A stretch of 64,000 nt of DNA from the NCBI RefSeq assembly GCF_988243305.1, contig NZ_OZ547136.1; one strand, 5' to 3'. The notes beneath the pieces were generated by a model. It was given only the letters and a program-made list of their open reading frames with translations, made no database searches and was not told where the DNA came from. The number at the start of each line of letters is the position of its first letter. The first letter of the stretch is position 1. The position numbers were made by a program, and so were the translations under genes. Shown here piece after piece: positions 10,737 through 22,249 of this stretch.

Positions 10737-11249
10737 TTAAATCGCAGCTTCCATTTCCAGCATCACCGGATGGAAACGGCGTTTAAAGTAGATAAGTCCG
10801 TGACCTTCTGCACTGAGGATGATGTTTTTAATCTCCACCAGATACACCAGATGTGTGCCAATTGCCTGCACATCGCGGATCTCACCTTCAAGACTGGCCA
10901 GCGAACCTTTTAGCACCGGCTGCGCCAGCGGACCTTTTTGCCAGCATGAGAGGCTAAAACGCTCTTCCATCGCCATGCCTGTCATGCCCGCGAAGTGGCG
11001 TGCCATCAGTTCCTGCTCATGGTTGAGGACGTTGACGCACAACTTGCCGTTGCCCTGAAAAACCGGGTTCATCGCACTGTTGGCGTTAATGCACACCATC
11101 AGCGACGGTGGTGTATCCGTGACCGAGCAGACAGCCGTTGCCGTAATCCCGCATTGTCCGGCGTCGCCCTCGGTGGTGATAATATTTACCGCTGCCGACA
11201 GGCTGGCCATTGCGTCACGAAAGCGCAGGCGTTGTTCATCTAATTGCAT
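10737..11249 (-). CDS. hpaC: 4-hydroxyphenylacetate 3-monooxygenase reductase component HpaC (flavin reductase)
   Basis: 170-aa flavin-reductase-like ORF immediately downstream of hpaB; part of the colinear hpa cluster. Confidence 0.88.
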   Translation of the reverse strand: MQLDEQRLRFRDAMASLSAAVNIITTEGDAGQCGITATAVCSVTDTPPSLMVCINANSAMNPVFQGNGKLCVNVLNHEQELMARHFAGMTGMAMEERFSLSCWQKGPLAQPVLKGSLASLEGEIRDVQAIGTHLVYLVEIKNIILSAEGHGLIYFKRRFHPVMLEMEAAI

Positions 11250-11266: not shown

Positions 11267-12829
11267 TTATTTCAGCAGCTTATCCAGCATGTTGATATCG
11301 TCGTTGTTGTGCAGGTGCGGCACAGTCCAGCCGTTCTGGTCGTATTCCGACAGGCAGCGATCAACCATCGCCATCATCTTGTCCATATTGCCGGAGCTTT
11401 GTGCCTGGCGCAGACACTGCAGGCGAATCTCATCCTGGCTACCGGAGTAGTTGATTTCATACAGTTCGTGACGACCACCAAATTCGCTGCCAATAGCATC
11501 CCACATCAGTTTGAGGATCTTGATGCGCTGGACGTGATCCATACCGTTCGAACCGCGCACATACTTCGCCAGATACTGGTCGATCTGCGGATTGTTCAGG
11601 TCACGGGCACTGGAAGGGAGATAGATCAGGCCACTGGTAACGTTGCGTTCGATAATGTTTTTGATCTTCGCGTAGGCCATTGGTGCCAGTACGCGATAGG
11701 TTTGCAGTGCGGCATGATCCGGTAAATAAGCCCCGTTGACCCACGGCGTCGCTTCTGAACACATCGAGTCACTCAATGCCCAGAAGGTGTTGCGCCACGC
11801 CACCACTTCACCGAGATCGGCCTGCACACCACGGAACTCCAGGGTGCCGGTACATTCGAGTGATTTTTTCAGCAGTGCCGTAATGAAGTCGAGTTTCACT
11901 GCCAGGCGCACACAGGCTTGCAGCGGATACATACGGGCGAAACCGCCTTCCATCGTCCAGCGACGGCAGCGATCAAAATCGCGGTAGATCAGCACGTTTT
12001 CCCATGGGATCAGCACGTTATCCATCACCAGAATCGCATCGTTCTCATCGAAGCGGCTGGAGAGCGGGTAGTCGTACGGCGAGCCGGTAGCACCCGCGAC
12101 CATCTCATAAGAGGCGCGGGAGATTAATTTCACGCCATCGGCATCCATTGGCGCAACGAACATCAGTGCGAAGTCCGGGTTTTCGCCCATCACTTGTGCC
12201 GAGCCGAAGCCAATCATGTTGTAGTGAGTCAGCGCCGAGTTGGTGGCAACCACTTTCGCACCGCTGACGATAATCCCGGCGTCAATCTCTTTTTCCAGCT
12301 TGATGTAAACGTCTTTCACTTTATCGGTCGGCAAATGACGATCAATCGGTGGGTTAACAATCGCGTGGTTAAAGTAGAGGCCAGTTTCCTGAATACGGGT
12401 GTACCAGTTACGGGCGTTCTGCTCGAACTGACCGTAAAAGCCCGGATTCGCGCCCAGTGCGCAACCGAAAGCAGCCTTGTAGTCTGGGGTACGGCCCATC
12501 CAGCCATAGCTCAGGCGTGACCACTCAGCGATGGCGTCGCGTTGCTGGCGCAGGTCGTCGGCACTTTTCGCCACGCGGAAGAATTTATGGGTATAGCCGC
12601 CGCTGCCGGTGTCGGTGTTCCAACACAGAGAGTCCTGCATCTCCGGTTTGTGCAGCGCGTCGTACAGTTGGGCAACAGACGCTGCCGCATTACGAAATGC
12701 CGGATGAGTGGTGACGTCTTTCACTCGCTCGCCATAGATATAGATCTCGCGACCATCCTGCAGGCTTTTCAGATACTCTTCCCCGGTGAACGGACGTTGG
12801 GTACTGGCGCGGAAATCTTCTGGTTTCAT
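11267..12829 (-). CDS. hpaB: 4-hydroxyphenylacetate 3-monooxygenase oxygenase component HpaB (520 aa)
   Basis: 520-aa ORF MKPEDFRASTQRPFTGEEYLKSLQDGREIYIYGERV... matches recalled HpaB. Confidence 0.92.
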   Translation of the reverse strand: MKPEDFRASTQRPFTGEEYLKSLQDGREIYIYGERVKDVTTHPAFRNAAASVAQLYDALHKPEMQDSLCWNTDTGSGGYTHKFFRVAKSADDLRQQRDAIAEWSRLSYGWMGRTPDYKAAFGCALGANPGFYGQFEQNARNWYTRIQETGLYFNHAIVNPPIDRHLPTDKVKDVYIKLEKEIDAGIIVSGAKVVATNSALTHYNMIGFGSAQVMGENPDFALMFVAPMDADGVKLISRASYEMVAGATGSPYDYPLSSRFDENDAILVMDNVLIPWENVLIYRDFDRCRRWTMEGGFARMYPLQACVRLAVKLDFITALLKKSLECTGTLEFRGVQADLGEVVAWRNTFWALSDSMCSEATPWVNGAYLPDHAALQTYRVLAPMAYAKIKNIIERNVTSGLIYLPSSARDLNNPQIDQYLAKYVRGSNGMDHVQRIKILKLMWDAIGSEFGGRHELYEINYSGSQDEIRLQCLRQAQSSGNMDKMMAMVDRCLSEYDQNGWTVPHLHNNDDINMLDKLLK

Positions 12830-13055
12830 GTCGACCTCTACAGTATTAATCGGAATACGATTGTTAATTTTGTGTGTTGTTTTTGTTATTCAATTGAATC
12901 GTTGAACGCGGTTGTCGGGAAGAGACGTTTCAGGCGAACGTTGGTACTTTTCGCCAGCAAGGTGGAGTTAAATAGTAAACTGCGATCGTGATCAACTTAC
13001 AGTAAGGCAAATCATAATATTCCCCGCTAACAAGGGCTAACGGGGACGGAATTGT
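12830..13055 (-). promoter_or_regulatory. Upstream region of hpaBC (expected HpaA-activated promoter)
   Basis: 226-bp non-coding gap upstream of hpaB. Inferred from known hpa regulation; no binding site mapped. Confidence 0.35.
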
Positions 13056-13994
13056 TTATGGGGCGAATGGAATGGTAATCGTCATATTTTCATGACCAAC
13101 GACGATAGGGCCTGAATAGTTTTTCTGTGCTTCTTGCTTCCATGTTTCATCCGGAACGGTGATTGGTACCAGGTGGCTAAGGATGAGTTTTTTCACTTTT
13201 GCTTCATTGGCAATTTTGCCTACATCCTCAATAGTCGTATGGTGAGAAGCAATGGCTTTTGCCAGTGTTTTACCATTGCCAATACTGTCTGCCAGCTTAG
13301 CGACGGAGGGCTCATGTACGGCCTCATGCACAAGTATATCAGCGCCTTCTGAGAAAGTTGCCAGTGGGGGAAAGTACGAGGTATCTCCTGAGAAGACAAT
13401 TCGCTTGCCTTGTGTGTCGAAGCGATAAGCAAAAGCCTCACCGTCAGGGAAAGGAGAATGAGGAACCTTTAATGCAGTCACGGTCACGGTATCATCTTTA
13501 TAAACTACGCCTTCACCAACATCTTGAGCTGTAACGAGCTTGCGAGGATCGGGTTTTCCTTCTTCTTCCATACGCAGTGTGATGTCCCGATCGAAGACCT
13601 GCCAACTGGCAGCGGTCATGGCTCGGGTACCTGGCGGACCGAACACATGAATATTTTTGTCCTGCAGACCGCTAGCCCATGCATTCATTAAGACTGAGGG
13701 ATAGTCCAGAATATGATCACTGTGTAAATGGGTGAGTAAAATATTATCAATCTGGCGCAGTGGAATATTATTTTTTACCAGTTGTAAGCTGGCCCCGTAA
13801 CCAGCATCAATTAACCATGTTTTATTGCCAATAATAAGTGCCGTTGCCATCGGCAAACGGTCAGCTTTTAATAAAGAAGGGCCACCTTTCGTTCCAAGTA
13901 GTACAATTTTCATTTCTTGCAGTTCGGAGGCGTAGGTGAATGCCACTGGCGCAATCAGGCACGCCACAAATAGTGAGCGTAAAGATATTTTCAT
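13056..13994 (-). CDS. Secreted metallo-beta-lactamase-fold hydrolase (HLHSDH motif, signal peptide), about 312 aa
   Basis: ORF track 13056..14051. Start set at MKISLRSLFVACLIAPVAFTYA (signal-peptide-like). HxHxDH motif (LTHLHSDHILDYP). Sits between hpaA and hpaB. Confidence 0.7.
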   Translation of the reverse strand: MKISLRSLFVACLIAPVAFTYASELQEMKIVLLGTKGGPSLLKADRLPMATALIIGNKTWLIDAGYGASLQLVKNNIPLRQIDNILLTHLHSDHILDYPSVLMNAWASGLQDKNIHVFGPPGTRAMTAASWQVFDRDITLRMEEEGKPDPRKLVTAQDVGEGVVYKDDTVTVTALKVPHSPFPDGEAFAYRFDTQGKRIVFSGDTSYFPPLATFSEGADILVHEAVHEPSVAKLADSIGNGKTLAKAIASHHTTIEDVGKIANEAKVKKLILSHLVPITVPDETWKQEAQKNYSGPIVVGHENMTITIPFAP

Positions 13995-14020
13995 GTCGAG
14001 TCTCTCAGGTTGATAAATGG

Positions 14021-14914
14021 TCAGCGACCACGGAATTGTGTTGGTGAGCAACCCATCATTCGGTTGAAAAAACGGGCGAAATAGGCGGGATCTTTGTAGC
14101 CAAGATCAAGGGCAATCTGGTTGATGCTTTGCTCGCTATAGAGCAGAAGCCGTCTGGCTTCCCGGCTCATTCGTTCGAAAATCAATCTCTTCGGCGATTG
14201 ATTGGCAAAACGTCGGCATAGCTCGGTAAGCCGTGATTCACTCATACCGAGCATTGCTGCATATTCAGGGACCATTAAATGTTGGCGATAATTTTCGTCA
14301 ATCAGCCGATTAAACTTCTGGAATAAACACATCTCGCCGCGCACGCTGCATGTTGAAATATCATTTGGTGGTGCTTCACGCAGTAGGATTGTAAAAATAC
14401 TTTGCGCCAGTGATTGCAATAGAATTTCCCGTCCTGGCTTATTTTGTTGAAACTCCAGGGATATTATCGGCCAATAATGATTTAATGCCGCCAGTGTATG
14501 TTCCATTCCCTCCAGCGACAGACAGATACCTTGTAGCATTGCGGCATCTCCACTACCAGGCCAGAGCTTTTCTACCAGGGGCCAAATTAACTCCTGACGT
14601 ACGGTCAGAACATGCCCGTCGCTATCAGGCTCAGTAAAGAAAGTATGTGGCACCGATGGTGGTGTTAGTACAAAAAGCGGTGCGCGCACAGAATAGAAGT
14701 GCTCATCCAGCTGTAAAGTAATGCGTCCAGTGACCAGATAATGGAGTTGAAAATATCTATCGTGCCAGTGAGGGCGCATATCGCGTCCAAAGAAATTCGC
14801 TAACCTGGCAAATGTTTCATAATGCACATCTTCACCAGCGTAGCGGGCATCATATTCCCGGACCAAATCAATATTTTCATAACCATGTTCAAAGATAGCT
14901 TCACTGGACATCAT
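14021..14914 (-). CDS. hpaA: AraC/XylS-family activator HpaA of hpaBC
   Basis: 297-aa ORF with a C-terminal AraC-type HTH (…YKDPAYFARFFNRMMGCSPTQFR), positioned between hpaX and hpaB. Confidence 0.85.
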   Translation of the reverse strand: MMSSEAIFEHGYENIDLVREYDARYAGEDVHYETFARLANFFGRDMRPHWHDRYFQLHYLVTGRITLQLDEHFYSVRAPLFVLTPPSVPHTFFTEPDSDGHVLTVRQELIWPLVEKLWPGSGDAAMLQGICLSLEGMEHTLAALNHYWPIISLEFQQNKPGREILLQSLAQSIFTILLREAPPNDISTCSVRGEMCLFQKFNRLIDENYRQHLMVPEYAAMLGMSESRLTELCRRFANQSPKRLIFERMSREARRLLLYSEQSINQIALDLGYKDPAYFARFFNRMMGCSPTQFRGR

Positions 14915-14920
14915 GACTCC

Positions 14921-16288
14921 TTATTGCGGTTTTGGTGCGATAAGTTCAGATGAAAGAGAGTGTTCCCGACTCCCCATAGGAATTCGGGTCATGACTAACG
15001 CGCCCAGTACCAGTAATCCTGCTACAAACCACAAACCTGAGCTAAAACTGCCGGTTGCATCTTTCAAAATACCGATAAGTAATGGACTGACTGCTGAACC
15101 TACATTACCGACAGCATTGATGACAGCCATCGCAACGGCACGCGATTGCAAGCTTATTACTTGATCCGGTGTCGTCCAAAAGATAGCCATTGCGGTAAAT
15201 GATCCCATTGAGGCCATAATGATGCCGCTCAGTTGAATGAGGCTGTGATCAGTCGCAGAAGCGAGTAACCATCCGGCAGCGGCAAACAGGTAGGGAAGAA
15301 TCGTATGCTTTTTGCGTTCTTTAAGACGGTCGGAACGACGACTCCACCAGATCATGCCAAAAATTGTGCAGAATTGGGGGATGGCCGCCAGCAAACCAAT
15401 CATGATGTTGCTACTGCCAGTATTGAAACTCTGTAGGATTTGCGGCGTCCAGATATTAATCGCACTCAGAGTATTGGTCAGGCAAAAATAAGCAAGTGTA
15501 TATAGCATGATGGCTGGGGTCAGGACTTCACGTAAGGTTGAGCGTGGAACAGATGCATGGGCAAATGCACTCTCTTGTTCACGGAGAATCATCGTTTTTA
15601 AAGCCTGTTTTTCGTTTTCATCAAGCCAGGTCGCCTGGTCTGGTGTATCGTTGAGATAAAACCAGGTGACGACACCAAGAATGACCGATGGCAGACCTTC
15701 CAGCAAAAAGAGCCATTGCCAGCCTTTTAGATTCCACAGTCCATCCAAGGCCAGAATGTAGCCTGAAAGGATCGATCCCAGCATCATAGTGACTGGCATC
15801 GCTATCATAAATAAGGCATTGGCTCTGGCCCGATGATATGCCGGGAACCACCAGGTCAGATAAACCAAAATACCAGGTAAAAAACCCGCCTCAGCAATAC
15901 CAACCAGCATACGCAGTAGATAGAGTGTTTCGGGGCTTGTTGCAAACATTGTGCAGGTGGAAGCAACTCCCCAGACCACCATGATCCCAGCGATCCATCG
16001 ACGAGCGCCAATTTTCGCTAACATCATATTACTGGGGATCCCGCACATGACGTACGTGACATAAAAGAGTGTCGCGGCGAGGCCAAACATTGTGGACGTC
16101 AGGCCAAGATCCTTGCCCATTGTCAGTCCGGCAAATCCTATATTGATGCGATCAAGAAACGAAAAAACAAACAGAATAAAAAGAAAAATGATTAGGCGAC
16201 GAAATAATTTATTAATGACACGATGTTCAATTTCAACAGTTTTATTATCTTTATATTGCAGGGTAGAGGTCGTCATGATGCGCTCCAC
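14921..16288 (-). CDS. hpaX: MFS 4-hydroxyphenylacetate transporter HpaX
   Basis: 455-aa 12-TM MFS protein in the hpa cluster. Confidence 0.85.
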   Translation of the reverse strand: MERIMTTSTLQYKDNKTVEIEHRVINKLFRRLIIFLFILFVFSFLDRINIGFAGLTMGKDLGLTSTMFGLAATLFYVTYVMCGIPSNMMLAKIGARRWIAGIMVVWGVASTCTMFATSPETLYLLRMLVGIAEAGFLPGILVYLTWWFPAYHRARANALFMIAMPVTMMLGSILSGYILALDGLWNLKGWQWLFLLEGLPSVILGVVTWFYLNDTPDQATWLDENEKQALKTMILREQESAFAHASVPRSTLREVLTPAIMLYTLAYFCLTNTLSAINIWTPQILQSFNTGSSNIMIGLLAAIPQFCTIFGMIWWSRRSDRLKERKKHTILPYLFAAAGWLLASATDHSLIQLSGIIMASMGSFTAMAIFWTTPDQVISLQSRAVAMAVINAVGNVGSAVSPLLIGILKDATGSFSSGLWFVAGLLVLGALVMTRIPMGSREHSLSSELIAPKPQ

Positions 16289-16297
16289 ATCGTACGT

Positions 16298-17101
16298 TTA
16301 GTAGACAGAGTTGTTGTTTTGCTTCGCCATCGAAATAGAAGAACTATTACCAAACCGTGCTGCCAGCGCTTCGGCGGCGCGGGCGAGCAGGGTGGTGTCA
16401 ACGCCGACGGCGACAAATAGCGCGCCCAGTTCCAGGTAGTGTTTTGCCAGTTGCTCATTGGCGATCAGGATACCCGGCGCCTTACCCGCTTCGCGGATCT
16501 GCACGATCGCCTGCTCAATCGCGGCCTGCACTTCCGGGTGTTGCGGATTACCGGCATAACCCATATCGGCGCTCAGATCCGCCGGGCCGATAAACACGCC
16601 GTCGACGCCTTCCACGTCCAGAATCTGCGGTAAGTTCTTCATTGCCTCACGCGTTTCGATCTGCACCAGTACGCACATTTGATCGTTGGCTTTTTGCAGG
16701 TAATCCGGAATACGGTTCCAGCGCGAGGCGCGTGCCAGCGCACTGCCCACACCGCGAATACCGGCGGGGGGATAACGGGTGGCGCGTACCGCTTCACGGG
16801 CTTCGTCGGCGTTTTGTACCATCGGCACCAGTAAGGTTTGTGTGCCGACGTCCAGCAGTTGTTTGATTTGCACCGGATCGTTCCACGATGGGCGTATCAC
16901 CGGCTGGCTGGGGTAGGGCGCAATCGCCTGTAGCTGGGTGAGCACGGTTTGCACGTTATTCGGCGCGTGCTCACCGTCGATCAATAACCAGTCGAATCCT
17001 GCTCCGGCCAGTAACTCTGCGCTGTAGCTGCTACTCAGCCCCAGCCATAATCCGATCTGCGGGCGGCCTGCTTTCAGCGCCGCTTTAAAACTGTTTTCCA
17101 T
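16298..17101 (-). CDS. hpaI: 4-hydroxy-2-oxoheptanedioate (HpaI) aldolase
   Basis: ORF track 16298..17242. Start trimmed to [19 protein letters not shown], the HpcH/HpaI aldolase N-terminus, 10 nt downstream of the hpaH stop. Confidence 0.85.
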
Positions 17102-17111
17102 CGTTCTCTCC

Positions 17112-17915
17112 TTAAACAAAGCGGCAGCTAATGGAGCCCATGTTGCCGTAATCGACGTGGAAGGTGTCGCCCTTACGCGCCGGAACCGGGCGGGTGAACG
17201 AACCGCCGAGAATGATTTGCCCGGCTTCCAGTTGTACGTCATACGGTGCGAGTTTGTTCGCCAGCCAGGCTACGCCGTTTGCCGGATGATTCAGCACACC
17301 AGCGGCGACGCCGGTTTCTTCAATCACGCCATTGCGATACATCAGGGCGGAGATCCAGCGCAGATCCAACTCATCGGGCTTAATGGGACGACCGCCGAGG
17401 ATCACCCCGGCGTTGGCGGCGTTATCGGAAATGGTGTCGAACACTTTGCGCGGGCGCTGGGTTTCCGGATCGATGTTGTGGCAGCGAGCGTCGATCAGCT
17501 CCAGCGCCGGGATCACATAATCCGTGGCGTTGTAGACGTCGAACAGCGTGCAGTTTGGTCCACGCAGCGGTTTTGCCAGCACGAAAGCCAGCTCCACTTC
17601 AATGCGCGGCACGATAAAGCGATCGGTCGGGATATCGCTGCCATCGTGGAAGAACATGTCATCCAGCAGGGCACCGTAATCCGGTTCGCTGATTTGCGAG
17701 CTGGCCTGCATCGCTTTCGAGGTCAGGCCGATTTTGTGGCCTTTCAGCGTACGGCCTTCGGCAATTTTCAGGCGGACCCATTCGCGCTGCACCGCGTAAG
17801 CGTCTTCGATGGTGATCTCCGGGTAATCCAGCGAGATCGCGCGGATCTGTTCGCGCTGTTTTTCTGCCTGATCCAGACGCTGGGCGATCAGGGTGTGGGT
17901 GTGTTTATCGAACAT
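17112..17915 (-). CDS. hpaH: 2-oxo-hept-4-ene-1,7-dioate hydratase HpaH
   Basis: Start set at [20 protein letters not shown] (267 aa). Confidence 0.85.
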
Positions 17916-17982: not shown

Positions 17983-18363
17983 TTATTTAAACAACGCGTG
18001 TACGTTGTTCTGTTTGAAATTCAACGTCGGGTGCAGCTCTGCAATCTCAAATGAAAGCGCCAGGTAACGGCTCTCCATCAGTGAGGCGAAGTGCGTTTTA
18101 ATCAGATCAAACAGCATTTCGCCTACTTCCTGACGGCTTTCCAGACTGCGCCCGCTGCCGATTTTTAGCGTCATATGCACAAAGGCGTAATCGTGCTTGC
18201 CATCAGCCATTTGCCAGGTATCGATCCAGTGCGCCCGGCTACGTATTCCCCCAAGCGGAAAAATCCCCGTCGCCGCCAGTGCAGTGTTAACACTGGCAAA
18301 CAGCTCAGGTAAGCGGGCTTCTTGACGAATATTTTCAGTACATTCCACGATAAAGTGCGGCAT
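17983..18363 (-). CDS. hpaF: 5-carboxymethyl-2-hydroxymuconate delta-isomerase HpaF
   Basis: 126-aa [25 protein letters not shown].... Confidence 0.85.
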
Positions 18364-18372
18364 GGTGGTTCC

Positions 18373-19224
18373 TTACGCGGGAAGCGGGAAAACAGCGTTA
18401 ACCTGACCGGTGCCAGAGCTTGGGAACAGCTCGGTGATAAACTCTACCTTGCCGTCGTATTTATCCCAGCCGAGCATCCCCAGCAGCATCACCGTGTCGT
18501 GCATATTGCCTTCGCCGTAGCAGTAGTCAGCGTACTCCGGCAGCATATTGCAGAACTCTTTGAACTGGCCTTCGCGCCACAACTTCACCACGCGCTCGTC
18601 CATCTGGCGGTCGAACTCGCGGGTGTAGCTGTTCATCCCTTCTTCCGCACGCTGATCGTCAATAAAGCGGTGCGATAATGAACCGCTGGCAAGGACCGCC
18701 ACGGTGCCGTCGTACTGTTCGATCGCTTTCAGAATCGCTTCGCCCAGCTTGCGGCTGTCGGCAAAATCATGAACGGTACAGAATGCGGAGATGGAGACCA
18801 CTTTGAAGTGCTTGTCTTCATTCATGTAGCGCATTGGCACCAGCGTGCCGTATTCCAGTTTCAGGCTGGGAATGTTGTGCGCTTTTGCCCGCACGCCGAG
18901 CTTTAAGGCTTCATCGGCAATTAGCTGCCCCAACTCCGGGTTGCCCTCGTAGTTGTAGGTCATGTCACGAATAAAATGCGGCAGCTCGTTACTGGTGTAG
19001 ACGCCTTCAAAATGGTCTGCACAGTTGATGTGATAAGCACTGTTGACCAGCCAGTGAGTATCGAAAACGATAATGGTATCGACGCCCATTTCCCGGCAAC
19101 GCTTGCTGATCTCTTTATGCCCGTCGATCGCGCCCTGGCGGCAACCGTGGTTTTTCCCTGGCAGTTCAGAGAGATACATCGACGGTACGTGCGTGATCTT
19201 GGCGGCTAACGCTAACTTACCCAT
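18373..19224 (-). CDS. hpaD: 3,4-dihydroxyphenylacetate 2,3-dioxygenase HpaD
   Basis: 283-aa extradiol dioxygenase-like ORF, 1 nt downstream of hpaE. Confidence 0.88.
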   Translation of the reverse strand: MGKLALAAKITHVPSMYLSELPGKNHGCRQGAIDGHKEISKRCREMGVDTIIVFDTHWLVNSAYHINCADHFEGVYTSNELPHFIRDMTYNYEGNPELGQLIADEALKLGVRAKAHNIPSLKLEYGTLVPMRYMNEDKHFKVVSISAFCTVHDFADSRKLGEAILKAIEQYDGTVAVLASGSLSHRFIDDQRAEEGMNSYTREFDRQMDERVVKLWREGQFKEFCNMLPEYADYCYGEGNMHDTVMLLGMLGWDKYDGKVEFITELFPSSGTGQVNAVFPLPA

Positions 19225-19225
19225 A

Positions 19226-20692
19226 TCAGACTCCCCATTTCGGAATTGGATGGTCGCCCATGGAAATGCAGACGTTCTTCATTTCCGCGAACACTTCGAA
19301 GCTGTACTCACCGCCTTCACGCCCGGTGCCGGAGGCTTTTACGCCGCCAAATGGCTGGCGCAGGTCACGCACGTTCTGGGTGTTGACGAACACCATGCCA
19401 GCTTCAATGCCACGCGCCAGGCGTAACACTTTGCTGACATCCTGTGTCCAGATGTACGACGCGAGGCCGTACTCCACGTCGTTTGCCAGACGTAAGCCTT
19501 CGGCTTCGTCTTTAAACGGCAGCAGGCAGGCGACCGGCCCGAAAATCTCTTCCTGGGCGACTCGCATACGGTTATCAACGTCTGCCAGCACGGTTGGGCG
19601 CAGGAAGTTGCCGCCTTTCAGGTGCGCAGGCAGGTCGGACGGTTTATCCGGACCGCCCGCCAGCAGGGTTGCGCCTTCTTCAATGCCGAGACGAATATAG
19701 CCGGAGACTTTTTCCCAGTGTTGCTGGCTGATAAGCGCCCCAACCTGGGTATTCGGATCGTTCGGATCGCCCACGCGCAGACGGTTGGCGCGTTCGGCAA
19801 AGCGTTTAACGAATTCCGGGTAGATGCTTTGCTGAATAAAGATGCGCGAACCGGCGGTGCAGCGCTCGCCGTTGATCGAGAAGATGGTGAACAGGGCAGC
19901 GTCCAGCGCGCGTTCAATATCGGCATCTTCAAAAATCAGCACCGGCGATTTACCGCCCAGTTCCATGGAGTATTTTTTCAGCCCGGCGTTTTTCATGATG
20001 TTGCGCCCGGTGGCCGTACCGCCGGTGAACGACACGGCACGTACGTCATGATGACGAACCAGCGCATCGCCTGCGGTTGCGCCGTAGCCCTGTACCACGT
20101 TCAGCACGCCCGCCGGAATACCGGCTTCCAGCGCCAGCTCACCCAGGCGGTCAGCGGTCAGCGGGGAGAGTTCCGACATTTTCAACACCGCGGTATTGCC
20201 CAGCGCCAGACACGGCGCGACCTTCCATGTGGCGGTCATAAACGGCACGTTCCACGGCGATACCAGCGCACAAACGCCTACCGGTTGCACCAGCGTGTAG
20301 TTGAGCATCTTGTCGTCAACCGGATAGGTCTTGCCGTTCATCTGCTGGCAGACTTCCGCGAAAAATTCAAAGTTGTGAGAAGCGCGTGGGATCAATACAT
20401 TTTTGGTCTGATGGATCGGCAGGCCCGTGTCCGCGGTTTCCATCGCGGCGATCTCAGGCACGTTCTGGTCGATCAGATCGCCCAGACGGCGCATCAGGCG
20501 CGCACGCTCTTTCATCGGCAGATTGGCCCATTTCGGGAACGCCTCTTTCGCTGCCGCTACCGCCTGATTGATCTCCGCTTCACCGCCGGAGGCCACATCT
20601 GCCAGCACTTCACCCGTTGCCGGATTGGTGGTCTGGAAGTAGTCGTTACCTGCAACATTTTTGCCGTTGATCCAATGATTTACTTTTTTCAT
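19226..20692 (-). CDS. hpaE: 5-carboxymethyl-2-hydroxymuconate semialdehyde dehydrogenase HpaE
   Basis: 488-aa aldehyde dehydrogenase family ORF; overlaps the hpaG stop by 4 nt. Confidence 0.9.
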   Translation of the reverse strand: MKKVNHWINGKNVAGNDYFQTTNPATGEVLADVASGGEAEINQAVAAAKEAFPKWANLPMKERARLMRRLGDLIDQNVPEIAAMETADTGLPIHQTKNVLIPRASHNFEFFAEVCQQMNGKTYPVDDKMLNYTLVQPVGVCALVSPWNVPFMTATWKVAPCLALGNTAVLKMSELSPLTADRLGELALEAGIPAGVLNVVQGYGATAGDALVRHHDVRAVSFTGGTATGRNIMKNAGLKKYSMELGGKSPVLIFEDADIERALDAALFTIFSINGERCTAGSRIFIQQSIYPEFVKRFAERANRLRVGDPNDPNTQVGALISQQHWEKVSGYIRLGIEEGATLLAGGPDKPSDLPAHLKGGNFLRPTVLADVDNRMRVAQEEIFGPVACLLPFKDEAEGLRLANDVEYGLASYIWTQDVSKVLRLARGIEAGMVFVNTQNVRDLRQPFGGVKASGTGREGGEYSFEVFAEMKNVCISMGDHPIPKWGV

Positions 20693-21978
20693 TTCGCTGT
20701 TTCCTCACTCACAATTCGGTTCACCAGGCGGCCCACGCCTTCTACTTCCACCACTACTTCATCGCCAGGCACCACGTCAGATAAGCCTTTTGGTGTGCCG
20801 GTGGCGATCATGTCGCCCGGATTCAGGGTCATAAATTCGCTTAAGTAGGCGATCAGGAAGGGCACGCTGAAGATCAGATCGGCGGTGGTGCCTTGCTGGC
20901 GTAACTCGCCGTTGACGAAGGTGCGAAGGGTCAGATTATGCGGGGCCGGGATCGCCTCTTTCGGCACGATGGTTGAAAGCATCGGCGTCAGTCCGTCGCG
21001 GCTTTTTACCCGCAGGTTAGGGCGGTAGTAGTTTTCCAGATAGTCGCGAATGGCGTAGTCGTTACACACGGTGTAGCCCGCGACATAATCCATGGCATCG
21101 GCTTCGCTGACGTTACGCGCCTGCTTGCCAATAACTACCACCAGCTCCGCTTCGTAGTGCATGTATTCAATATTGTTCGGGCGCACGGAGGTCTGGTTAT
21201 CGCCAGTGAGGGTATTCGGCGCTTTCAGGAACACCAGCGGTTCTTCCGGTGGCTTAAATTCCAGTTCGCTGGCGTGGTCGGCGTAGTTCAGGCCGAGGGC
21301 AAACAGCGTGCCGTGCGGGTGTGGCTGCGTTGGGAAGCTCTTGCGCGTGGTCACTTCACGTTCGTCCACTACCGGATTTTCCAGTGGCGGGAAACCTTCT
21401 GCGAGAACACGCACGCGATCGCCTGGCTGTATTTCCACGCGCGCCTGTGGCGTGCCGAGCAGAATGGCATCGCCTGGATTCAGCGTGGCAAATTCGCTCA
21501 GGGCGCTCAGCAACTGTGCGGCGTTACGTTGTAAATCGGCGGTATTCCAGTGATCGGCAGGACGCCCGTTGATCTCGGTATAGATAGTCAGATTATCGAC
21601 ATTGCTGAGAGCCACGGTTTCGCCAATGGGGCAGAATCCATCACGACATTTTGCTTTGATTGCCGGGCGGTAAAAGCTCTCTTCCGGCAGGCTGACGTCG
21701 TTAGCCAGCGCATATCCGGCGATGTACTCTGCCGCATCTTCTTCACGTACTTTCGTCGCCGTTTTCCCCACCATCAACGCAACAGTCGCACCGCTCAGTA
21801 CCTTTTCACCCTGTGGAAAGGGAATCCGTTCACCGCAACCAATCACCGTATTGCGCGGTTTAATAAACCAGACCGCAGTTTTAGGCGGGGTTTTGTAGGG
21901 GGATTGCTGGAACGCTTCCTGCCATGCATCAAGCTGGCTGCGATGGTTCAACGCTACGGCGAAGATAGTGCCTTTCAT
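20689..21978 (-). CDS. hpaG: Bifunctional 5-oxopent-3-ene-1,2,5-tricarboxylate decarboxylase / isomerase HpaG
   Basis: Duplicated FAH-fold protein. Start at MKGTIFAVALNHRSQLDAWQ (429 aa). Confidence 0.9.
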   Translation of the reverse strand: MKGTIFAVALNHRSQLDAWQEAFQQSPYKTPPKTAVWFIKPRNTVIGCGERIPFPQGEKVLSGATVALMVGKTATKVREEDAAEYIAGYALANDVSLPEESFYRPAIKAKCRDGFCPIGETVALSNVDNLTIYTEINGRPADHWNTADLQRNAAQLLSALSEFATLNPGDAILLGTPQARVEIQPGDRVRVLAEGFPPLENPVVDEREVTTRKSFPTQPHPHGTLFALGLNYADHASELEFKPPEEPLVFLKAPNTLTGDNQTSVRPNNIEYMHYEAELVVVIGKQARNVSEADAMDYVAGYTVCNDYAIRDYLENYYRPNLRVKSRDGLTPMLSTIVPKEAIPAPHNLTLRTFVNGELRQQGTTADLIFSVPFLIAYLSEFMTLNPGDMIATGTPKGLSDVVPGDEVVVEVEGVGRLVNRIVSEETAK

Positions 21979-22249
21979 TACCACTCCTCGGATTCGATCA
22001 TCTTAATCATTAATATGTTAATGATTACTTTTATTCCCGATTGCGTAGTTTGGCAAAAGTAAGTGATGTAAATGTGATCTAATTAACAAACTATTTACAT
22101 TTGCAGGTAATAAAATACTAAATATCAGTAAGTTAATAAAGTATGCTCAATTTTGATAAAATGAGGAATTGCGGGGATAGCTCAGTCCCGGTAACGTGAT
22201 GATTAACTGTTTCTATATTAATGATTTTGAATTTTTCAGGGGAAAGATA
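21979..22249. promoter_or_regulatory. Divergent hpaG-operon / hpaR promoter-operator region
   Basis: 271-bp AT-rich intergenic region between divergent hpaG and hpaR. Function inferred from known hpa regulation; no sites mapped. Confidence 0.45.

Follow-up and report, generated by a model that had tools for sequence, protein, structure and literature searches.

The hpa pathway of Escherichia coli W is a textbook system of aromatic catabolism, and HpaBC is widely used as a biocatalysis toolbox. In a 64,000-nucleotide stretch of E. coli DNA (assembly GCF_988243305.1, contig NZ_OZ547136.1; referred to here as the window), a gene encoding a metallo-beta-lactamase (MBL)-fold hydrolase lies inside the hpa cluster, between the activator gene hpaA and hpaBC. 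The locus, which is 100% identical to that of strain C4 and many other E. coli strains, raises the question of how this gene reached its position and whether its product serves the degradation of 4-hydroxyphenylacetate (4-HPA). No description of an extra enzyme travelling with hpa in Salmonella, a minority of E. coli, Alcanivorax and Pseudomonas was found in the literature searched.

The hydrolase gene and its product

The gene, its orientation, the HLHSDH motif and export signal of its product, and the 226-bp gap to hpaB had been described in an initial annotation made from the letters alone; the ORF, its codons, the N-terminus and the coordinates agreed with that description, and 26 bp separated the gene from hpaA (Table 1). 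The ORF was intact, and the signal peptide, HLHSDH and all of the MBL ligand positions were present, with D63, H179, D204, H252 and H274 as further ligand positions that were invariant in an alignment of 17 homologues. The RefSeq entry for the identical gene in strain C4 is WP_001305623.1, 'MBL fold metallo-hydrolase'. Read directly from the sequence, the N-terminus (MKISLRSLFVACLIAPVAFTYA, followed by SE) combined a pair of basic residues with a hydrophobic core of 13 residues and a T-x-A motif for cleavage, and the protein would be expected to reside in the periplasm of E. coli. A leader, whether N-terminal hydrophobic/Sec or Tat-type, was present in most of the homologues; it was absent from the forms encoded in hmgA operons and from one group of hpa-linked homologues. 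A change from D to N in the motif of a Salmonella cluster representative was considered as a sign of inactivation and dropped, as HLHSDH was kept in other Salmonella sequences.

Table 1. Positions of the features of the hpa locus in the window
Feature	Coordinates	Strand	Details
hpaG	20689-21984	minus	
hpaE	19226-20692	minus	
hpaD	18373-19224	minus	
hpaF	17983-18363	minus	
hpaH	17112-17915	minus	
hpaI	16298-17101	minus	
Recombined xenologous block	12899-16349	minus	upstream half of the hpaBC promoter region (PBC), MBL gene, hpaA, hpaX and last ~17 hpaI codons
Variant hpaX, MFS 4-HPA permease	14921-16288	minus	71% aa identity to W HpaX
Variant hpaA, AraC-type activator	14021-14914	minus	59% aa identity to W and to Salmonella HpaA
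hpaA-MBL spacer	13995-14020	minus	26 nt; Shine-Dalgarno-like GAGAG 7 nt ahead of ATG
MBL-fold metallo-hydrolase CDS (ElaC/AtsA branch), predicted export	13056-13994	minus	312 aa, ATG start
Predicted Sec-type signal peptide MKISLRSLFVACLIAPVAFTYA, codons 1-22	13929-13994	minus	predicted cleavage after A22
HLHSDH metal-binding motif, residues 89-94	13713-13730	minus	codons CAT TTA CAC AGT GAT CAT
Hairpin, 11-bp stem, 4-nt loop, then A/U-rich AAUAUUAUGAUUUG	13021-13046	minus	10 nt past MBL stop
Conserved boxes upstream of hpaB	12919-12952	minus	GAAAAGTACC at 12943-12952; GTCTCTTC at 12919-12926
Core hpaBC promoter and 5' leader	12830-12898	minus	69 bp upstream of hpaB ATG; 100% identical to E. 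coli W
hpaB	11267-12829	minus	canonical E. coli allele, 4-HPA 3-monooxygenase
hpaC	10737-11249	minus	canonical E. coli allele, 4-HPA 3-monooxygenase

The protein scored 73 bits against Pfam PF12706 Lactamase_B_2 (cut-off 27, E=3e-20) and 46.4 against PF00753 Lactamase_B (cut-off 22.7). Together with these profile scores, the HxHxDH motif with downstream His, Asp and His ligands and an alpha-beta/beta-alpha sandwich fold placed it in the MBL superfamily, and its AF2 model had a pLDDT of 89.9 and a pTM of 0.87. Judged by profiles and model, the product is a predicted binuclear-metal hydrolase of the ElaC/AtsA branch of that superfamily. Three methods gave the same top match, 8GYG, an MBL-type arylsulfatase from Pseudoalteromonas atlantica (phmmer E=1e-25; Foldseek TM 0.81-0.83). 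This protein is a solved homologue of the SulfAtlas S4 family, the prototype of which is AtsA of Pseudoalteromonas carrageenovora. The S4 enzymes are marine; to our knowledge, artificial aryl sulfates and agar are their only known substrates, with no described link to aromatic-acid catabolism.

To belong to S4, a protein needs HxHxDH and an identity of 30% or more to AtsA P28607, and the 'arylsulfatases' of the family were defined on artificial substrates (PMC5066984). The motif was present in the window protein, and its identity, as measured against the solved homologue 8GYG, was 24-29%; 120 family relatives were 26-33% identical to 8GYG. On account of these low identities the family is regarded as a sister group of S4 rather than as a demonstrated member. 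In addition, K36 (GTKGGP), which is invariant in the subfamily, is M in 8GYG.

Scores against the equivalogs of other branches fell below their cut-offs. For tRNase Z/ElaC they were 125.7 against 292.95 (TIGR02651) and 49.7 against 563.7 (TIGR02649), and the flexible-arm exosite of RNase Z was missing, the alignment to 1y44 skipping chain residues ~151-200. Enzymes of the tRNase Z/ElaC/RNase BN type are cytoplasmic and RNase Z/ElaC has the arm, whereas the window protein has a predicted N-terminal signal peptide, no arm, scores of less than half of the equivalog cut-offs and a catabolic gene context. The profiles for Apyc1 and cyclic-nucleotide phosphodiesterases (PF23023, 19.2 bits against 50; NF041851, 84.1 against 400) and for GntH of guanitoxin biosynthesis (NF041257, 128.9 against 333) were not reached either.

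Replacement of the hpaX-hpaA cassette

The E. coli W cluster (hpaR, hpaGEDFHI, hpaX, hpaA and hpaBC) occupies the same site as the cluster in the window (tsr ... btsT), and the meta-operon genes, hpaBC and the core PBC are common to both, with 97-100% identity. The window differs from W in the addition of the MBL gene, in its xenologous hpaX and hpaA and in a different HpaI tail. HpaA and HpaB of the window both scored above the cut-offs of their own NCBIfam equivalogs. The statement in the initial annotation that hpaA is followed directly by hpaBC in the described E. coli cluster proved correct for E. coli W, which lacks the MBL gene: in KO11FL hpaA is followed, after 250 bp, by hpaB; strain M37H likewise had hpaA and then hpaB, 250 bp apart, and no MBL gene.

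The segment that stands in place of the canonical W hpaX-hpaA is 3.4 kb in size. Within it (~12953-16348), hpaX and hpaA had 66-69% nucleotide identity to W and M37H by blastn, compared to 97-98% for the flanks, and its GC content was 46%, that of the neighbouring hpa genes being 54-58%. The left junction was located at ~12898, inside PBC, where the identity to W ends at the palindrome TTCAATTGAA. The right junction was located at ~16349, about 50 nt ahead of the hpaI stop codon, as a result of which the C-terminal tail of HpaI is altered and the REP-containing 175-bp hpaI-hpaX spacer of W is lost; in the window, hpaX starts about 9-21 nt past hpaI.

The contrast in identity between block and flanks, the junctions and the intact core PBC argue for a cassette swap and against a promoter-displacing insertion. 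The suggestion that an insertion had relocated the hpaBC promoter was therefore abandoned: the hpaX-hpaA-MBL block and the upstream half of PBC had been swapped in, and a core PBC that is 100% W still abuts hpaB. On these comparisons the event is a homologous cassette replacement, one crossover being placed within PBC and the other in the 3'-terminal part of hpaI, and high confidence attaches to this account of the anatomy and evolution of the locus. It represents a clean case of a within-operon cassette swap by homologous recombination in which one crossover fell inside a promoter. Loss of the MBL gene in place from W found no support, as the W hpaA-hpaB spacer contained no remnant and gave chance-level matches only (tblastn and blastn). 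Plasmid origin was also rejected; nothing above 60% identity was detected by tblastn among 72,556 plasmids.

The two boxes upstream of hpaB did not vary between the window, W and S. arizonae and are candidate HpaA operator elements. Beyond both boxes, the imported upstream half of PBC had additional similarity to the Salmonella hpaB promoter region. Because this half keeps the invariant boxes and the Salmonella-like upstream similarity, the MBL gene of the donor would likewise have been followed by PBC-hpaB. The HpaA proteins of W and Salmonella share 87% identity and are of one type; that of the window is 59% identical to either, so that the window allele represents a third lineage. The closest relatives of the MBL protein (85%) and of HpaA (84%) were both on short Logan contigs. 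The closest named HpaA was that of Pluralibacter gergoviae (80%), in whose cluster the MBL gene was absent after hpaA, and among the GTDB species representatives no relative of the MBL protein was closer than that of Salmonella (77%). The cassette, consisting of hpaX-hpaA-MBL and the upstream half of PBC, would have passed from an enterobacterium into a minority E. coli lineage.

Among 5426 complete E. coli genomes the MBL gene was present in 48 (0.9%) and hpaB in 2071. In all 48 carriers the gene was chromosomal, single-copy, intact and 99.0-100% identical. The carrier lineages were scattered, and they came from humans, birds and livestock.

No sigma-70-like or promoter-like site was found between hpaA and the MBL gene in a promoter scan of the coding strand, and the spacers from hpaG through the MBL gene ranged from -4 to 67 nt. 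The hairpin that follows the MBL stop codon was not called as a terminator in a consensus terminator scan; the folding z-score of its region was -2.3 for a 116-nt stretch, and it is likely to mark the end of a transcription unit. Given the tight spacing, the lack of an internal promoter and the post-stop hairpin, the simplest reading is a transcript with the MBL gene as its 3'-terminal cistron, covering either hpaX-hpaA-MBL or the longer hpaGEDFHI-X-A-MBL. It is thus probably co-transcribed with hpaX-hpaA as the final gene of the packed hpaGEDFHI-hpaX-hpaA-MBL array, and PBC-hpaBC would form a separate transcription unit.

Gene neighbourhoods of the homologues

The initial annotation had raised the possibility that the same gene might be found at this position in reference hpa clusters. 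This held for Salmonella enterica, where the gene lies directly after hpaA, and did not hold for E. coli W. An orthologue with 76-77% identity was located directly 3' of hpaA (hpaG..I-X-A-MBL) in S. enterica, S. arizonae and S. diarizonae, in a cluster of 1719 sequences, which makes the hpaA-MBL order a standard one in other Enterobacteriaceae. From its place on the LT2 map, we take this orthologue to be STM1109. In Salmonella, STM1109 is labelled as a 'putative periplasmic protein' (PMC5797601). The STM1109-type protein resembles that of the window in length, signal peptide and position after hpaA, with 76% amino acid identity. The Salmonella cluster differs in having hpaBC at its opposite end, the MBL gene being followed by unrelated genes (pmrD-like, cbpM and cbpA).

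Linkage to hpa genes was observed in unrelated lineages, namely Escherichia, Salmonella, Alcanivorax, Alloalcanivorax, P. putida, Salinisphaera, Cobetia and one more. The homologue lay directly after hpaI in Alcanivorax and Alloalcanivorax (57-58% identity) and in one strain of P. putida (53%), ~3 kb from hpa-like genes in a Salinisphaera MAG (50%) and, in the one further lineage (53%), 1.2 kb from hpaA in convergent orientation. In Cobetia crustatorum (47%) it was accompanied by genes for a CHMI isomerase, a phenol hydroxylase, a TRAP transporter, a porin, an aldehyde dehydrogenase and AraC regulators. A compost pseudomonad (53%) had an HpaA-like AraC regulator, OprD, TRAP and MFS genes around its homologue, and in Acinetobacter (46%) the neighbours were a GMC oxidoreductase, an aldehyde dehydrogenase, a LuxR gene and a copper amine oxidase. 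The name hpaY, used in P. putida U, was considered for the MBL gene and rejected, as hpaY is a second HpaR repressor (PMC7180172).

For the distant members (42-47% identity, mostly from alphaproteobacteria), the nearest-neighbour ORFs were counted in bulk by Pfam family, giving 109 ORFs from 55 loci. Homogentisate 1,2-dioxygenases lay immediately upstream in 11 cases and FAD aromatic hydroxylases immediately downstream, also in 11, which points to a tight, same-strand hmgA-MBL-hydroxylase operon. Flavin amine oxidases accounted for 20 of the neighbours, and TauE/TSUP anion transporters, immediately upstream in Bradyrhizobium, for 13. Linkage was not universal: no aromatic-catabolism genes were found beside several close homologues, among them those of Pseudomonas sp. 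OF001 and Photobacterium.

Judged by gene neighbourhoods, the MBL family recurs as an accessory gene in clusters for the catabolism of hydroxyphenylacetate, tyramine and dihydroxyphenylacetate. It follows hydroxyphenylacetate and tyramine catabolism whatever the route of ring cleavage, an observation in favour of a function where substrates enter the pathway.

Proposed role and alternative explanations

Since the gene is linked to hydroxyphenylacetate-degradation genes in many other bacteria, it probably encodes an accessory helper enzyme of the pathway and is probably not a random insertion. No functional study of the MBL gene, STM1109, WP_001305623 or a hydroxyphenylacetate-linked arylsulfatase was found in the literature searched. 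A functional tie to hydroxyphenylacetate catabolism is considered likely. Evenly balanced between right and wrong, in our estimate, is the fuller reading that the product, exported in E. coli, acts as an accessory hydrolase of sulfate esters (or phosphate esters) and makes hydroxyphenyl-acetates or -amines available from their conjugates to HpaX, HpaBC and the meta pathway.

In this mechanism the enzyme would hydrolyse a hydroxyphenyl-acetate or -ethylamine compound that is esterified with sulfate or, less probably, with phosphate; 4-sulfooxyphenylacetate, DOPAC sulfate and the O-sulfates of tyramine or dopamine are candidate substrates. The freed phenolic acid or amine would then be taken up by HpaX and degraded by HpaBC and HpaGEDFHI. 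Sulfatase activity specifically is put forward only tentatively; weak support comes from the TauE/TSUP neighbour in Bradyrhizobium, which would suit an organosulfur anion. Rather unlikely, as we judge it, is the broader proposal that the subfamily is a dedicated desulfating enzyme of the hydroxyphenylacetate/tyramine catabolon, which in gut enterobacteria would act in the periplasm and remove sulfate from host-conjugated phenolics (4-HPA sulfate, DOPAC sulfate and tyramine or dopamine O-sulfates, for instance) for use by HpaX and HpaBC. Unmasking in the periplasm cannot hold for the family as a whole, because some of the hpa- and hmgA-linked homologues are leaderless.

If sulfated or esterified hydroxyphenyl compounds are unmasked, the pathway would gain host-conjugated gut metabolites as additional substrates. 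Unmasking would also explain the 99-100% identity of the allele across the scattered E. coli carriers described above. Were the desulfating interpretation true, the S4-like branch of MBL-type sulfatases, which is poorly understood, would have its first physiological substrate, and some E. coli and most Salmonella would have a formylglycine-independent way of using sulfated aromatic metabolites.

Phosphodiesterases and phosphatases also have strong structural resemblance to the window protein, with RNase Z, ELAC1, BA1088, YhfI, a PhnP-family diphosphatase, PDE1 and Apyc1 among the neighbours, and the top NCBIfam matches were to GntH, RNase Z and a cyclic-nucleotide phosphodiesterase model, all of them below the cut-offs given above. 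A periplasmic enzyme that resembles ElaC, YhfI or PhnP and has nucleotides or phosphodiesters as its substrates, tied to hydroxyphenylacetate through a phosphate ester or not at all, is regarded as unlikely.

The ester or lactone substrate that the initial annotation had listed corresponds to a carboxyl-esterase or lactonase that acts on aromatic esters or lactones (homogentisate gamma-lactone, for example) to free hydroxyphenylacetate. We consider this quite unlikely; MBL-fold lactonases and esterases do exist, and a homogentisate-lactone hydrolase would suit the hmgA-MBL-hydroxylase operons.

A third explanation, which denies the gene any pathway role, is that it is a passenger, unrelated in function, carried along with the hpaX-hpaA alleles when they were imported. 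Its presence in only 0.9% of complete E. coli genomes and its absence from Pluralibacter gergoviae, the nearest named HpaA lineage (80%), would be consistent with such an origin, as would the ability of E. coli W to degrade 4-HPA without the gene, which is thus dispensable for the core pathway. However, linkage to hpa, hmgA or tyramine-oxidation genes recurs independently across several orders and in differing gene orders. The ORF is also intact and at least 99% conserved in 48 of 48 genomes, and relative to Salmonella the MBL protein is 76% identical but the neighbouring HpaA only 59%. The passenger explanation is very unlikely in the light of these results.

Finally, a PNGM-1-like periplasmic beta-lactamase is extremely improbable. 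PNGM-1 was among the top sequence and structure matches, HxHxDH is present and the protein is predicted to be exported; comparison with class B (B3/PNGM-1-like) enzymes revealed no close kinship to a proven lactamase.

Ends of the recombined block

Comparison with the canonical hpa cluster of E. coli W showed that the recombination junction at the 3' end of hpaI altered the C-terminal tail of the encoded protein. In strain W HpaI ends in ...ARFGAQATAVKPGVY, whereas the window HpaI terminates in a different sequence. The 175-bp spacer that keeps hpaI and hpaX apart in E. coli W, and that carries two REP-like elements, was removed in the window; as a result, hpaX abuts the meta operon.

Upstream of the two conserved boxes of the hpaBC promoter region, the window carries the donor-type sequence TGATCACGATCGCAGTTTACTATT, which was compared with homologue locus L010. 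This stretch resembles the region upstream of hpaB in Salmonella, in contrast to the corresponding region of E. coli W, and it may represent an extra regulatory site that is specific to the window and Salmonella lineages.

Coordinates of the features discussed, with gene content where assigned
Feature	Sequence	Coordinates	Genes
Recombination junction, 3' end of hpaI	Window	16298-16349	
Donor-type sequence upstream of hpaB	Window	12953-12996	
Stretch compared with it	L010	~1125-1168	
Defence island	Window	~1-7000	Type I R-M S and M subunits, GmrSD-domain endonuclease, Fic protein, BrnA antitoxin
End of collinearity with strain C4, near yjjG	Window	~40576 onward	
MBL gene encoding P0007	L004 (Salmonella enterica)	7216-8154	
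Mu-like transposable prophage	L007 (Logan SRR10037879)	1-7700	MuA, MuB, Gam, Kil, repressor
MBL gene of the HLHNDH subgroup	L099	10001-10948	

Variant forms of the MBL-fold protein

The S. enterica protein P0007, which represents a large Salmonella cluster (n = 1719 sequences), has HLHSNH in place of HLHSDH, a change at the metal-ligand Asp; this residue was retained in four other Salmonella proteins, P0005, P0006, P0008 and P0052. On the Salmonella-like contig L007 a Mu-like prophage lies directly upstream of the MBL gene and occupies the place of the hpaA and hpaX genes of other Salmonella, which suggests that Mu inserted at or near the hpaA-MBL boundary.

A subgroup that comprises the L099 protein, P0014-P0016 and P0023 was 53-56% identical to the window protein and had the motif HLHNDH rather than HLHSDH. 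Its members have no signal peptide, with a stop codon seven codons upstream of the start, and still adjoin an hpa cluster; from these two features the subgroup is predicted to be a form of this accessory enzyme that stays in the cytoplasm. The Logan protein P0004 (419 aa) joins the N-terminal part of an aldehyde dehydrogenase to an MBL protein with 76% identity; the fusion probably stems from a frameshift or faulty assembly, or else from rearrangement of an hpa cluster.

Window regions outside the hpa cluster

Upstream of yjiA, beyond yjiA, yjiX and btsT, the window carries a variable defence island, the genes of which were assigned by their 99% identity to strain C4. This site is occupied by penicillin G acylase, yjiR and yjiS in E. 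coli W and by hsdRMS and mrr in M37H. Collinearity between the window and C4 stops near yjjG; C4 carries a tyrosine integrase and prophage genes there, and the content of the window therefore differs at this tRNA-Leu-proximal site.
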